Origin: a virus
Lineage: Duplodnaviria > Caudoviricetes
Reading direction: 5' to 3' (one strand)
Length of the DNA: 53,238 nucleotides
Virus record (IMG/VR): IMGVR_UViG_3300048009_000062
Span: 1-53,238 of that record
Shown here: piece after piece, positions 2,867-32,492 of the stretch
How the letters are laid out: each line of letters opens with the position of its first letter
How positions within the stretch are numbered: position 1 is the stretch's first letter
The notes under the pieces: model-generated
Told to the model about the DNA's origin: nothing
The model's database searches: none
The model's input: only the letters and a program-made list of their open reading frames with translations
Position numbers and translations under genes: made by a program

Positions 2867-3052
2867 ATGTCTAAAGCAAGACTACTGGCTGATCTTATGA
2901 GAGACAGCAAAATCTCCCTCGCAGAGGTTCAAGGTTCAGCCTCTGCTTCGGACTTCAACGTAAACGAACCAAACTACAACACTTCCGATATTAGCCTCAA
3001 TTTGAAGGTCGAGGCTCTTGAAGATGAAAATTTACTCAATTTAGGGGTCTAG
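2867..3052 (+). CDS. Small tail connector protein (MSKARLLAD...)
   Basis: AGGA upstream of ATG 2867; MSKAR.LAD start typical of marine phage tail proteins; C-terminus resembles that of the 688-aa tail protein. Confidence 0.65.
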   Translation: MSKARLLADLMRDSKISLAEVQGSASASDFNVNEPNYNTSDISLNLKVEALEDENLLNLGV

Positions 3053-3055
3053 AAA

Positions 3056-3958
3056 ATGCCAACAACAAATACAAATTTTACTTCGCTCATAACAGCGATT
3101 GATACCAAGGCGCAGTCATTAGCTGCATCTACAACTGATCCTAAAGACCTTGTGTTTTTAGGCAAAGCGGTTGAGGCACTTAACGTATCTGATACAGTTT
3201 CTTCTGTTATTGCAGAGGGTGATACTCAGGTAGCTGCAGTAAATGCTGCAGGGGCTACACAAGTTGCTGCAGTTGCGGCACAAGGTTCTGGTTACGCATC
3301 ATTAGCCAATCCTACTTTCACAGGTACGATGAATGCTGATAACTTAACTATGTCTGGGAATCTAACGGTCAACGGAACTACCACAACTATTAATACGGCT
3401 ACCTTAGATGTAGAAGATAAAAACATTACCGTAGCCAAAGGCGCAGCCGATAGCGCAGCGGCTAATGGTGGTGGTCTGACAGTGGATGGTGCAGGAGCTA
3501 CCTTCAGCTACGCCAGTACTGGTGACAAGTGGACTACAAATAAAGGTCTAGATGTAGGTGGTACGCTACAGATCGATGAAGTTATTGAAACGGCTGCTAT
3601 TAGTGCAACCACTTCTGGCACTCTAACAATGGATATGGTTCAACAAGCAGTTTTGTTTTGTAACGTAAACCAGACTGCTAATAGAGCAATGAACTTTCAA
3701 GGTGATAGTTCAGTTAATGTAGATGATATGTTGGCTGTAGGGCAAAGTATGAGTGCAGCCGTATTGATGGCGCAAGGCTCATCCGCATACTACTTAAACT
3801 CCTACTCAATAGACGGCAATTCAGTCACTCCAAAGTGGCAGGGCGGTAGCGCACCAACGGCAGGGAATGCTTCTGGAATAGATGTTTATACCTTCACCAT
3901 AATCAAAACAGCTTCAGCAACATTCACAGTTTTGGCAACAGTAGCGGCATTCGCTTAA
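3056..3958 (+). CDS. Tail fibre protein, cassette 2
   Basis: Paralog of 727..1848 (LGKAVEAL, GNLTVNGTTTTIN, AANGGGLTVDGA, IDVYTFTIIKT). Confidence 0.8.
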   Translation: MPTTNTNFTSLITAIDTKAQSLAASTTDPKDLVFLGKAVEALNVSDTVSSVIAEGDTQVAAVNAAGATQVAAVAAQGSGYASLANPTFTGTMNADNLTMSGNLTVNGTTTTINTATLDVEDKNITVAKGAADSAAANGGGLTVDGAGATFSYASTGDKWTTNKGLDVGGTLQIDEVIETAAISATTSGTLTMDMVQQAVLFCNVNQTANRAMNFQGDSSVNVDDMLAVGQSMSAAVLMAQGSSAYYLNSYSIDGNSVTPKWQGGSAPTAGNASGIDVYTFTIIKTASATFTVLATVAAFA

Positions 3959-28851: not shown

Positions 28852-29102
28852 TAGTTATCTCCTGCTTCAATGACTACACCATCACATCCAGAGCAACTCT
28901 CTTTGAGTGAGGCTAATAAGTTAAGAAGGCTCTTGTAAGTTTGCCAATCTTTAGCCTTCTCCTTACTATCTAAATCATTAAGCCAATCAATCTGAGCATC
29001 AATCTGTTCTTTATATATCCAGTACTCACTATAACTTTCTAGCTTCTCGACTGTACCTTCTATAGGCTTCCAATTGTGGGCTTGAACCATATCAGTACTC
29101 AT
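28851..29102 (-). CDS. Hypothetical protein
   Basis: GAGG before ATG 29102; coupled. Confidence 0.6.
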   Translation of the reverse strand: MSTDMVQAHNWKPIEGTVEKLESYSEYWIYKEQIDAQIDWLNDLDSKEKAKDWQTYKSLLNLLASLKESCSGCDGVVIEAGDN

Positions 29103-29678: not shown

Positions 29679-30154
29679 GCTGCATTCACCTTAAGCGAAG
29701 GGTATATATCTTCTATGTTTAGTTCCTCATGGTCATAAGGCAGAATAGATATACCAATGTAGCCTCTAAACATATCTAGATCTTTTCTTTTACATTCAGA
29801 TGCCTCAATTAAGTTTTGATCTATCCACTTCGTTGTATCAGGGTCAGCTACCTCAGTGTTAAGGCCTTTGTAATAAACAAAACAAATAAAATCACCTTCT
29901 TTTGCATACTTAGCTAGGTGTTTAATAGACAGAAGCTTATCTCCACGAGGTCTGCGATACAGCTTTAGTGTAGAAGGTATGGGATCTTCAAGATAATATC
30001 CATGCCCAATGGCTGCACGATAGGTTACAGCCTGTCCACCTTGTAAGTTGTCATAAGTAATGGGCATCTCATCGTCAGCCCATTCAGTTACTTTCTTGTT
30101 AGCATCAATAATATATTTGTTAATCATCCTGTTAGTCACTTTGATCATGTGCAT
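29675..30154 (-). CDS. Hypothetical protein, first gene of leftward operon
   Basis: AAGGAG RBS, promoter at 30187-30215. Confidence 0.7.
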   Translation of the reverse strand: MHMIKVTNRMINKYIIDANKKVTEWADDEMPITYDNLQGGQAVTYRAAIGHGYYLEDPIPSTLKLYRRPRGDKLLSIKHLAKYAKEGDFICFVYYKGLNTEVADPDTTKWIDQNLIEASECKRKDLDMFRGYIGISILPYDHEELNIEDIYPSLKVNAA

Positions 30155-30240: not shown

Positions 30241-30356
<116 letters not shown>

Positions 30357-30404
30357 AAAATCTGAAAATTAATTAAATAAATAAATGGGGCCGAAATTAT
30401 CTGT

Positions 30405-30491
30405 TTGCATTATTATATTAGATCGGTTAAAATTCGGTCACGGGCATTGTGCTCGAAAATCAACTTTGGAATAAGGACCAAAAAATATGAA
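30405..30491 (+). promoter_or_regulatory. Early promoter plus stem-loop leader, copy 1
   Basis: TTGCAT-17-TAAAAT, then GGTCA-CGGGCA/TTG/TGCTCG-...CAACTTT...AAGGACCAA-ATG. Confidence 0.7.
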
Positions 30492-30690
30492 AATGAAAAA
30501 TCTGATGCACTTCGAAGTGAAAACTCACAAAGGCAATCATAATAATGTATTAGCTGAAAGTGTTAAAAACTTCTTAAATAAAGAGCGTTATTCTATCTCT
30601 TTAAATAAGAACGTAAAATATGCCGACATGGATTTAACGCAATTTATTAACTCAATTGCTAAAGATCTAGATATGAAAAAGGCCTCATAA
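30487..30690 (+). CDS. Early hypothetical protein
   Basis: Promoter and RBS directly upstream. Confidence 0.7.
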   Translation: MKMKNLMHFEVKTHKGNHNNVLAESVKNFLNKERYSISLNKNVKYADMDLTQFINSIAKDLDMKKAS

Positions 30691-30764
30691 ACTGTGGAAA
30701 TTGGTTTTCTATTACGGGCTAATCTCATTAATTGTGGATTTATCGAACGCAAACTTTTTTTAAC

Positions 30765-30837
30765 ATAGCAAAGTGAAACGGGCCTACTGGCCCGTAGTCT
30801 GGGAGCGATGTCTCAGGCCTGACGATCAATCAGCTAT
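30765..30837 (+). ncRNA. Putative hammerhead ribozyme (type II topology)
   Basis: GAAA-stem III (CGGGCC/GGCCCG)-UA-stem I (GUCUGGGA/UCUCAGGC)-CUGACGA; stem II closed distally by AUAGC/GCUAU; predicted cleavage after GUA at 30796. Confidence 0.7.
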
Positions 30838-30863
30838 TTAAACAAACAACTAAGGACTAAAAA

Positions 30864-31820
30864 ATGAATAACATTGTAGATATCAAATGGACACCTGAAA
30901 CTAAATCAGTTGAAGGTCTATTGCCCTCTATCGATCAAGTAAACTTTAACGCTAAACATACGCCTCTATATATAATGCGAGACAGTGGAGCATTGGAGCA
31001 GCTTACTAAAGACCAAGGTCAGGCAGTTATCAGGACTGATACTGGAGCCTTTTTAGGGCGTACTGGTGGGCGCTATGGCATTGCTCAAAATCCTGAGATT
31101 AATGATGTATTATGTCAGGCCATCGAAACTGCTTTTAATAGATCAGACAGAAAAGATGTTGAGCTCAAGGAAAGCATTTCTGATGGTGGGGCGTTTAGTA
31201 AATGGACATATACCTTTCCATCATTAGGAGCCCCTATCAGGCAGTTAAGAGATGCCACTGGCTATAATGCTGCACGTTATGGGCAAGGCTACGCTGACAC
31301 TTGGTTAAATTTCAGTATATCAATAGTGAATAGTTTTAATGGCCTTACACCTGTTTATGTTACCAGTGAGCATCAGGATGTTAGCTGTTTAAATAGCCTT
31401 ACAATGTCTTTTAAGGACACTACACGCCTTAGACATTCAACTAATATCGATGTAACTAAATTGGCTGATTGGATGGAAAGCGAAGCATTAAACTTCAAAA
31501 CCAAAATTGCTGTATGGCAGTCGTGGGCTGAAAAGAAAATTACTCCAGAACAGGCTGAGGAAACTTTAAAGCTTTGCGGAGTATCTGATAGGCTAACAAA
31601 ACAGTTAATGCTGCAATTTGAGGAAGAGGCCTCGAAGCGATCTAGCACAGTGTGGGCCTTGGCTAGTTCTTTATCTTTTATGTCTACTCATAACTCTGAG
31701 CGTTTTGGAGTTCGAGGTTCAGCCAAAAAAGATAATGAGGCTAGATCATTACACGCCCGTCAAAATCAGGTCCTAAAAATTATGGACCAACCTGCATGGG
31801 CTGAGATGGCGGCTGCCTAA
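30864..31820 (+). CDS. DUF932/DUF945-family early protein
   Basis: AVIRTDTG..LG..G.RY...QN.E, NSFNG, C.N, RHS, WAL....F..TH. Confidence 0.75.
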   Translation: MNNIVDIKWTPETKSVEGLLPSIDQVNFNAKHTPLYIMRDSGALEQLTKDQGQAVIRTDTGAFLGRTGGRYGIAQNPEINDVLCQAIETAFNRSDRKDVELKESISDGGAFSKWTYTFPSLGAPIRQLRDATGYNAARYGQGYADTWLNFSISIVNSFNGLTPVYVTSEHQDVSCLNSLTMSFKDTTRLRHSTNIDVTKLADWMESEALNFKTKIAVWQSWAEKKITPEQAEETLKLCGVSDRLTKQLMLQFEEEASKRSSTVWALASSLSFMSTHNSERFGVRGSAKKDNEARSLHARQNQVLKIMDQPAWAEMAAA

Positions 31821-31987
31821 TGGTTGCTCAAGTTCGTGATATCGATAGGAAGGCGATTATGGTTAGTCGAAGGCTAACCGCCTTGTCCAAAAAAGAGCGA
31901 AAAATTATTGAACGAATAAATCGCCTAGAAAAATATTTGAAGGCCTTGGGTACGAAAAATGAGGCCCTCTATACTCTAACTAAATAA
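31820..31987 (+). CDS. Small basic coiled-coil protein (55 aa)
   Basis: TAATG coupling; MVAQVRDIDRK... Confidence 0.55.
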   Translation: MVAQVRDIDRKAIMVSRRLTALSKKERKIIERINRLEKYLKALGTKNEALYTLTK

Positions 31988-32006: not shown

Positions 32007-32033
32007 GGTCCCACTTAGGTGGGGCCTTTTTTT
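32007..32033 (+). terminator. Rho-independent terminator
   Basis: GGTCCCAC-TTAG-GTGGGGCC + T7. Confidence 0.85.
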
Positions 32034-32144
32034 GTCTAAAATATGCTAATTTAGGGAAACGGGTTTTTATGACCTACACTAAGCAAAAGGCCTTTCGTTA
32101 TTCTGGGGCCATCTGAGGGCCTCTCAGGTCTATTTAAATAAAGT

Positions 32145-32230
32145 TTGACGTTACATTAAAAATAATGGTAAGTATGGGTCACGGGCAGTGTGCCTGATAA
32201 CCAACTTTTAGGAAGGACCAATATTATGAA
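32145..32230 (+). promoter_or_regulatory. Early promoter plus stem-loop leader, copy 2
   Basis: TTGACG...TGGTAAGT, then GGTCA-CGGGCA/GTG/TGCCTG-...CAACTTT...AAGGACCAA-ATG. Confidence 0.65.
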
Positions 32231-32492
32231 TACCAAACCTTTACCAAATTTACTTTTACATATTTATGAGGGCAACCTTTTAGAAAATGGCATGAAAGTA
32301 ATTGAACTTAAAAAAGTAAAAGAAGGTGAATATTTCAAACGTAAATCTGATGCTAAAAAAGAATACATAAGAGGCCATTATAATCGGAAGAATGATTTTG
32401 GACCCGCCTCTTTTAGCTGTACTGATAGCGATGATATCGGGCGCTGCATCGAATTAAAACCATCCACAATTGTTTATGTGGAGGCCTACTAA
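32226..32492 (+). CDS. Early hypothetical protein
   Basis: Start reassigned to ATG 32226 after AAGGA; LKKVKEGEYFKRK...YIRGHYNR motif. Confidence 0.65.
   Translation: MNTKPLPNLLLHIYEGNLLENGMKVIELKKVKEGEYFKRKSDAKKEYIRGHYNRKNDFGPASFSCTDSDDIGRCIELKPSTIVYVEAY

Follow-up and report, generated by a model that had tools for sequence, protein, structure and literature searches.

A predicted type II hammerhead ribozyme between two genes of an HMO-2011-like marine phage

We identified, at positions 30765-30837 on the plus strand of a phage genome sequence, what is very probably a functional type II hammerhead self-cleaving ribozyme, predicted to lie within a polycistronic mRNA and to separate its cistrons. 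The window, by which we mean the whole 53,238-nt stretch that was analysed, corresponds to positions 1-53,238 of the IMG/VR record IMGVR_UViG_3300048009_000062. The sequence of the element, its fold, its family match, its conservation and covariation, its strand and its intergenic position are established here. As judged from the orthologous sequences, it belongs to a conserved sub-family in which stem II opens with a U10.1-U11.1 mismatch, has one Watson-Crick pair in its inner part and is closed by a distal helix. The element adds a further case to an RNA class that is already well known, and is not of a new kind.

Genomic setting and parts of the element

The window encodes a terminase, a portal protein, a DnaB-like helicase and a DNA polymerase. 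By its polymerase, the nearest cultured relative is Roseobacter phage CRP-738 (65.7% amino-acid identity), and identity to the polymerase of Puniceispirillum phage HMO-2011 is 35%; by these sequence criteria the phage is HMO-2011-like and marine roseophage-like. A comparison of the DNA at 30400-31900 with 50,697 phage records returned zero matches.

Genes lie on the minus strand to the left of 30154 and on the plus strand from 30487 onward. The ribozyme is found within a plus-strand unit, in the order gene 1, ribozyme, 318-aa gene, 55-aa ORF and terminator-like site (Table 1), and the last of these probably marks the end of a three-gene unit. The intercistronic position that had been read from the sequence held up, as consensus scans detected no promoter-like plus-strand site between 30690 and 30864 and did detect the terminator-like site downstream. 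Among the contigs from 4 of 10 RNA-library runs that contain part of the stretch, none spans 30628-30798.

In the divergent intergenic region there is also a run of 34 A at 30321-30354, preceded by a CA/TA-rich low-complexity stretch (30243-30292). In the linear records of phages CRP-212 and CRP-3, the homologue of the 318-aa gene lies near the record end, so that the A-run region may be at or near the genome ends; alternatively, the run may be an assembly artefact.

The 318-aa gene had been called a DUF932 gene in an earlier note, which is correct by homology and not by direct match. The window protein matches no Pfam family, even at E<=10, but 14 of its 22 aligned homologues match PF06067 (DUF932), the best with E=1.6e-14, and its membership of the family therefore rests on these homologues. 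The protein also has a weak match to phrog_1221.

Table 1. Features of the ribozyme and its surroundings in the window, with the hammerheads of two cultured phages
Feature	Position	Strand	Basis or detail
Gene 1, upstream of the ribozyme	30487..30690	+	67 aa, without family match
Stem II outer helix, 5' strand AUAGC	30765..30769	+	sequence, MFE fold
Inner stem II, 5' side, G11.2 and U11.1	30773..30774	+	
Core strand GAAA, G12-A15.1	30775..30778	+	aligned to the RF02276 core
Stem III hairpin, CGGGCC/GGCCCG, loop UACU	30778..30795	+	A15.1-U16.1 and 6 G-C (7 bp)
Predicted scission, H17 = A30796	between 30796 and 30797	+	from the hammerhead consensus
Stem I hairpin	30797..30818	+	30797-30804 with 30811-30818, 8 bp including 2 G-U
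Stem I loop GCGAUG	30805-30810	+	
Putative pseudoknot strand GAU in loop I	30807..30809	+	complementary to 30829-31
Core strand CUGACGA, C3-A9	30819..30825	+	matches the Rfam alignment
Inner stem II, 3' side, U10.1 and C10.2	30826..30827	+	U30826/U30774 mismatch, C30827-G30773 pair
Putative pseudoknot strand AUC, stem II internal loop	30829..30831	+	where Perreault 2011 (PMC3088659) places the type II pseudoknot
Stem II outer helix, 3' strand GCUAU	30833..30837	+	pairs with 30765-69
RBS of the 318-aa gene	AAGGA 30852-56; ATG 30864	+	sequence
318-aa gene, downstream of the ribozyme	30864..31820	+	distant DUF932-family protein, via homologues
55-aa ORF after the 318-aa gene	31820-31987	+	
Terminator-like hairpin and T run	32007..32036	+	consensus scan only
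CRP-212 (L154) type II hammerheads	2289-2354; 3039-3114	coding	RF02276, 38.4 bits; 32.1 bits
CRP-3 (L155) type II hammerheads	2273-2344; 2920-2995	coding	RF02276, 37.2 bits; 32.9 bits

Every feature that the earlier note had listed from the letters alone, the ribosome-binding site included, was recovered base for base. Its assignment to type II is borne out by the order of the elements, GAAA, stem III, H17, stem I and CUGANGA, which is the type II permutation, with stems I and III capped and the strand ends lying in stem II as this type requires. The outer helix of stem II could be extended to about 30759 over one mismatch. As this distal helix closes stem II, the putative pseudoknot partner of loop I sits in an internal loop.

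Match to the hammerhead family and conservation among relatives

The segment 30771-30835 (plus strand) matches the Rfam model RF02276 (Hammerhead_II) over all 66 model positions with 32.9 bits, at E=0.007 when the whole window was searched on both strands with 4227 families, and at E=2.4e-5 when the search was confined to the local 181 nt. The Rfam search proposed earlier thus retrieved the hammerhead over its full length, but below the cut-off: at gathering thresholds no Rfam family matches the window, and the copy falls about 4 bits short of the RF02276 threshold of 37. The sole other match in the E-value listing of the window is to a flavivirus xrRNA model at 28902-28989 (plus strand); this weak, full-length match (25.7 bits against a gathering score of 50, E=0.67) is most likely due to chance.

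The plus strand folds into a three-way junction with z=-4.6, none of 200 shuffled sequences being equally stable, and the minus strand of the same region gives z=-1.6. A strict descriptor, consisting of both core strands and two stems of at least 4 bp, finds one site in the window and has hits in 4 of 100 dinucleotide-preserving shuffles. A relaxed descriptor without length limit gave long spurious hits, 4 of them on the minus strand, and was replaced by a compact version. An upstream ACGGGC was considered as a competitor for stem III and dropped, as it is not kept in relatives.

That there is no ribozyme here, and that the two hairpins form a terminator, an attenuator or a protein-binding site, seems scarcely credible. 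A consensus scan does flag a terminator-like site on the minus strand, at the reverse complement of stem III, but the minus-strand genes start at 30154 and run away from the site, so that there is none upstream to terminate, and on the plus strand neither hairpin is followed by a T run. Moreover, the unpaired core letters are invariant and the hammerhead model is matched from end to end, both of which speak for a hammerhead.

The 318-aa protein has 22 relatives in the protein collection, through the alignment of which we obtained 80 metagenome and 68 viral loci, in addition to 4 found earlier. The strict descriptor was applied to both strands of 154 sequences (549,002 bases) and hit 30 times, in each case on the strand of the gene. 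The compact energy-based descriptor, which overlooked one strict-scan hit (L073), gave 29 hits on the plus (coding) strand of 127 non-redundant loci and 0 on the minus strand; none of the 29 falls inside the gene. Rfam was run on the window and on 44 of 158 loci, L005 being included as a whole contig. A covariance model of our own (R1) was too specific, most canonical copies scoring below 26 bits or being missed, and scored the two L147 copies at 38-41 bits. Pattern scans of viral_contigs with stem I or stem III fixed returned the contig of L004 alone, which was already known.

Two kinds of hammerhead occur among these relatives. The canonical type II kind, with G10.1-C11.1 and a GGCC-type pseudoknot, belongs to distant relatives, the protein of which is 33-37% identical, and often flanks the gene on either side, as in L069, L070 and L114. 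The kind present in the window begins 87-95 nt before the start codon in 12 loci (the window, L004, L006, L011, L012, L013, L016, L022, L018, L042, L089 and L091), and a further copy, in L019, of which L020 is a duplicate, lies 367 nt upstream of the gene. Several orthologous copies reach the RF02276 gathering score of 37 (L016 42.7 bits, L012 41.6, L011 38.9, L019 38.9, L089 38.6, L013 37.3) and others stay below it (L005 35.6, L042 35.3, L006 33.6, the window 32.9, L091 30.3); the window copy is thus a low-scoring member of a family that Rfam recognises.

The distribution of the element is uneven. Of the 15 loci in which the protein is at least 75% identical and the upstream sequence extends for 150 nt or more, it is present in 9 and absent in 6 (L001, L002, L008, L010, L014, L015), and among loci of 45-55% identity with enough upstream sequence it is found in 4 of 25, which suggests that the ribozyme is common but dispensable or replaceable. 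In L007, the short upstream stretch of 40 nt matches the 3' part of the hammerhead.

Some of the neighbouring arrangements deserve mention. In three loci (L018:1341-1438, L091:1336-1433 and L042:1337-1432) an upstream ORF ending in ERLF(L/M)VA overlaps the ribozyme, its stop codon lying inside the 5' strand of stem II, and the element would therefore be co-transcribed with this ORF. In L011 (89% protein identity) there is a 467-nt insertion (L011:1902-2369) relative to the window at about 32200-32232. It contains a second type II hammerhead (L011:2313-2360) directly 5' of the next ribosome-binding site and is preceded, at L011:1846-1891, by a 46-nt, 91% identical copy of the gene-1 leader (window 30436-30481). 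Hammerheads seem to travel with gene cassettes.

Covariation was assessed on a MAFFT alignment of 11 distinct copies that was built without structural information. Standard pairs occupy 94.3% of the cells, compared with a mean of 83.8% for shuffled columns (0 of 500 shuffles reached as high a value), and when partners were slid by 1-3 columns just 31-46% were paired. Compensatory changes on both sides are seen in 13 of 27 pairs. Stems I and III are paired in 100% of cells, with 6 of 8 and 2 of 7 pairs, respectively, changed on both sides; in the outer helix of stem II both sides have changed in 4 of 6 pairs. At 11.2-10.2, 9 copies have GC, one has GU and one UA. An alignment of 14 copies gives the same picture. 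In all 14 the GAAA core strand and CUGA-GA are unchanged (N7 being C or U), A15.1-U16.1 is A-U, and H17 is A, U or C and never G, so that the 11 core nucleotides and the non-G character of H17 have been preserved amid co-varying stems, in phages of which the neighbouring protein has diverged to about 53% identity (33% for the two L147 copies). The hammerhead fold put forward in the earlier note is thus upheld both by the full-length RF02276 match and by covariation in the orthologues, a comparison that the note had proposed; in them the core is invariant and the same gene follows about 90 nt downstream of the start of the element.

The same note had drawn attention to an atypical stem II. The feature itself is present: the window has U30826/U30774 at 10.1-11.1, and not the canonical G10.1-C11.1; the position is non-standard in all 11 aligned copies and U-U in 10 of them. 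L016 (read allowing for a one-base insertion) and L022 have G-U there, and L019 and L020 have G-C within an otherwise identical architecture. It is, however, no new oddity. According to the text of Perreault 2011 (PMC3088659), natural hammerheads can open stem II with a U10.1-U11.1 mismatch, U-U was already known as the best tolerated and most active mispair, and stem II may have two pairs or even one. The lack of G10.1-C11.1 is therefore not disqualifying, and the U-U variant, like the class as a whole and its phage context, was already published in 2011. In the passages of that paper that we consulted, we found no description of a helix closing stem II beyond the pseudoknot strand, and its supplements may list the family.

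The pairing of loop I GAU with AUC, also suggested beforehand, falls at the usual place for type II, in which, in the account of PMC3088659, a pseudoknot commonly joins loop I to the nucleotides that directly follow stem II on its 3' side. Over the 14 copies its G-C and A-U pairs are invariant and the third is UG in 10, CG in 2 and UA in 2. The fourth pair is U-A in 7 of 11 copies, and the fifth, over 14, is UA in 5, CG in 1 and unpaired in 8. The window could form 3 bp, the shortest in the family, and its relatives 4-5 bp. From these sequences the pseudoknot is supported but not proven.

One may ask whether such an element is a decayed, catalytically dead hammerhead, the stable three-way junction of which has been retained, for instance, to stabilise or space the cistrons. 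U-U stands where the most conserved stem pair would be, the score of the window copy is under the gathering score (32.9 against 37), and the putative pseudoknot has just 3 bp; in experiments reported in PMC3088659, the pseudoknot was required for fast cleavage at 0.5 mM Mg2+ and its shortening lowered activity 20- to more than 100-fold. We nevertheless consider decay quite unlikely, because a dead core would be expected to drift, and the core and the non-G H17 are kept in 14 of 14 diverged copies in which the stems co-vary. Furthermore, the maintenance of U-U across phages of about 53% identity, in the midst of co-varying stems, argues that the variant works, as do the natural U-U hammerheads already on record (PMC3088659). 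We thus favour an active ribozyme.

Predicted consequences of cleavage and possible roles

A polycistronic mRNA would carry gene 1, the ribozyme, the DUF932-like gene and the small ORF. From hammerhead chemistry, scission should occur between A30796 and G30797. The gene-1 RNA would then have the G+C-rich stem III hairpin at its 3' end and carry a 2',3'-cyclic phosphate there, and the first nucleotide of the DUF932 mRNA, bearing a 5'-OH, would lie directly at the base of the stem I hairpin; in the predicted fold, this hairpin begins with the first base of the 3' product, and stem III forms the end of the 5' product. Exonucleases and 5'-monophosphate-dependent RNase E would act poorly from either product end. 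That 5'-OH and hairpin ends stabilise RNA is general knowledge from E. coli, and the host here may differ. If the ends were protected in this way, the hairpin-capped halves might decay independently and the levels of the cistrons might come to differ without a protein nuclease, which is the least certain step of the scheme. A 5'-OH, hairpin-capped, RNase E-resistant mRNA is, on this analysis, a plausible consequence of cleavage. The predicted accessibility of the ribosome-binding site is the same before and after cleavage (0.85 and 0.86), so no effect on translation is predicted. The outer helix of 5-11 bp would hold the products together longer than the canonical stem II of 2-3 bp.

There are precedents for such processing. 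Hammerheads flanking prophage genes have been proposed, in the text of PMC3088659, to process long phage transcripts into single-gene mRNAs, and type II hammerheads near phage-like genes are described in PMC8782182 as cleaving in vivo in Desulfovibrio vulgaris.

The ribozyme may also be active in a role other than stabilisation of the DUF932 mRNA, such as marking cassette boundaries, ligation or circularisation (through the release of RNAs with 5'-OH and cyclic-phosphate ends), or down-regulation of one cistron. The hammerheads on both sides of the gene in the distant relatives L069, L070 and L114, those after each of two successive genes in CRP-212 and CRP-3, and the insertion in L011, with its second hammerhead before the next ribosome-binding site and its repeat of the gene-1 leader, are all compatible with such a role, as is the wholesale exchange of the intergenic element between phages of which the gene is 92-95% identical. 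Against it, the window has a single hammerhead, from which no RNA could be excised, and spliced or circular products were undetectable according to PMC3088659. On balance, a role of this sort is unlikely, and separation of the cistrons of a polycistronic mRNA is the reading that we retain.

Alternative elements and relation to known ribozymes

In the 6 of the 15 close relatives that do not have the hammerhead, another conserved element takes its place. It is found at L086:1408-1491 (the contig of L001), L087 (the contig of L002), L008, L010, L014 and L015, and partially in L003/L088, the 62 nt of upstream sequence of L003 matching it. The alternative element consists of a 5-bp hairpin over the upstream stop codon and, after it, a 12-bp hairpin in which 2 pairs have changed on both sides and of which the loop, GGCC(C/U), can pair with (G/A)GGCC just 5' of the ribosome-binding site; a C-G in this loop pairing is replaced by U-A from one sequence group to the other. 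In L001-L003 the element has no match to any Rfam family at E<=1, and 20 further loci showed no other known ribozyme at the site at E<=0.5. A pattern scan of viral_contigs for the alternative element returned three contigs, all known before.

Among relatives of about 50% identity without the hammerhead, a stable conserved hairpin precedes the gene, often with a small second hairpin and a CA-rich leader (L028, L033, L035, L037, L041 and L099; L024, L029, L097 and similar; L031, L092, L093, L036 and L095). These hairpins matched no Rfam family.

One might speculate that different RNA-processing elements can be exchanged for one another in the gap that separates gene 1 from the DUF932-like gene, and that the alternative hairpin would be the functional equivalent of the hammerhead; we hold this to be very unlikely. 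If it were true, the alternative hairpin could be an undescribed self-cleaving motif or the target of a dedicated nuclease. The alternative element is the sole lead here that might be new.

The hammerhead of the window itself has close counterparts. It resembles RF02276 and the type II hammerheads as presented in PMC3088659 in its core strands, A15.1-U16.1, non-G H17 and capped stems I and III, in its open stem II with a putative pseudoknot that would link loop I to the sequence on the 3' side of this stem, and in its intergenic phage setting on the coding strand. Unlike RF02276, it has U-U at 10.1-11.1 and one Watson-Crick pair in inner stem II, and, unlike the type II consensus published there, which has a free 3' tail, it has a 5-11 bp helix that closes stem II. 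The opening of stem II with U-U is shared with the natural U10.1-U11.1 variants of PMC3088659, and the example published in that paper may belong to the same family.

The cultured phages CRP-212 and CRP-3 encode a homologue of the 318-aa protein (35-36% identity). Each carries a first hammerhead, above the gathering score, directly after this homologue and a second one after the next gene (Table 1); the GenBank feature tables of these stretches contain CDS alone and no RNA features. These hammerheads share with that of the window the phage group, the neighbourhood of a DUF932 homologue, the coding strand and the intergenic position, but with G10.1-C11.1 and a GGCC-type pseudoknot they are canonical, and they follow the gene instead of preceding it. 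We found no literature linking DUF932 to ribozymes, or HMO-2011 phages to hammerheads.

In synthetic insulators of the RiboJ type, engineered from a type III satellite-RNA hammerhead, a hammerhead in the 5' leader removes the upstream RNA and leaves an mRNA that starts with a 5'-OH and a hairpin. The window ribozyme is similar to them in leader design and differs in being a natural phage element.

Our analysis adds a well-supported hammerhead family to the abundant marine podoviruses represented by the HMO-2011-like roseophages. As the copies of the window and of four relatives score below the cut-off, standard Rfam annotation recovers this family in part. It also provides natural, selection-tested evidence that a core with U10.1-U11.1 and a one-pair inner stem II can be maintained when the geometry is fixed by a distal helix and a putative short pseudoknot. 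CRP-212 and CRP-3, which are cultured on strain FZCC0040 and carry canonical copies near the same gene, could be used to test what phage hammerheads do.
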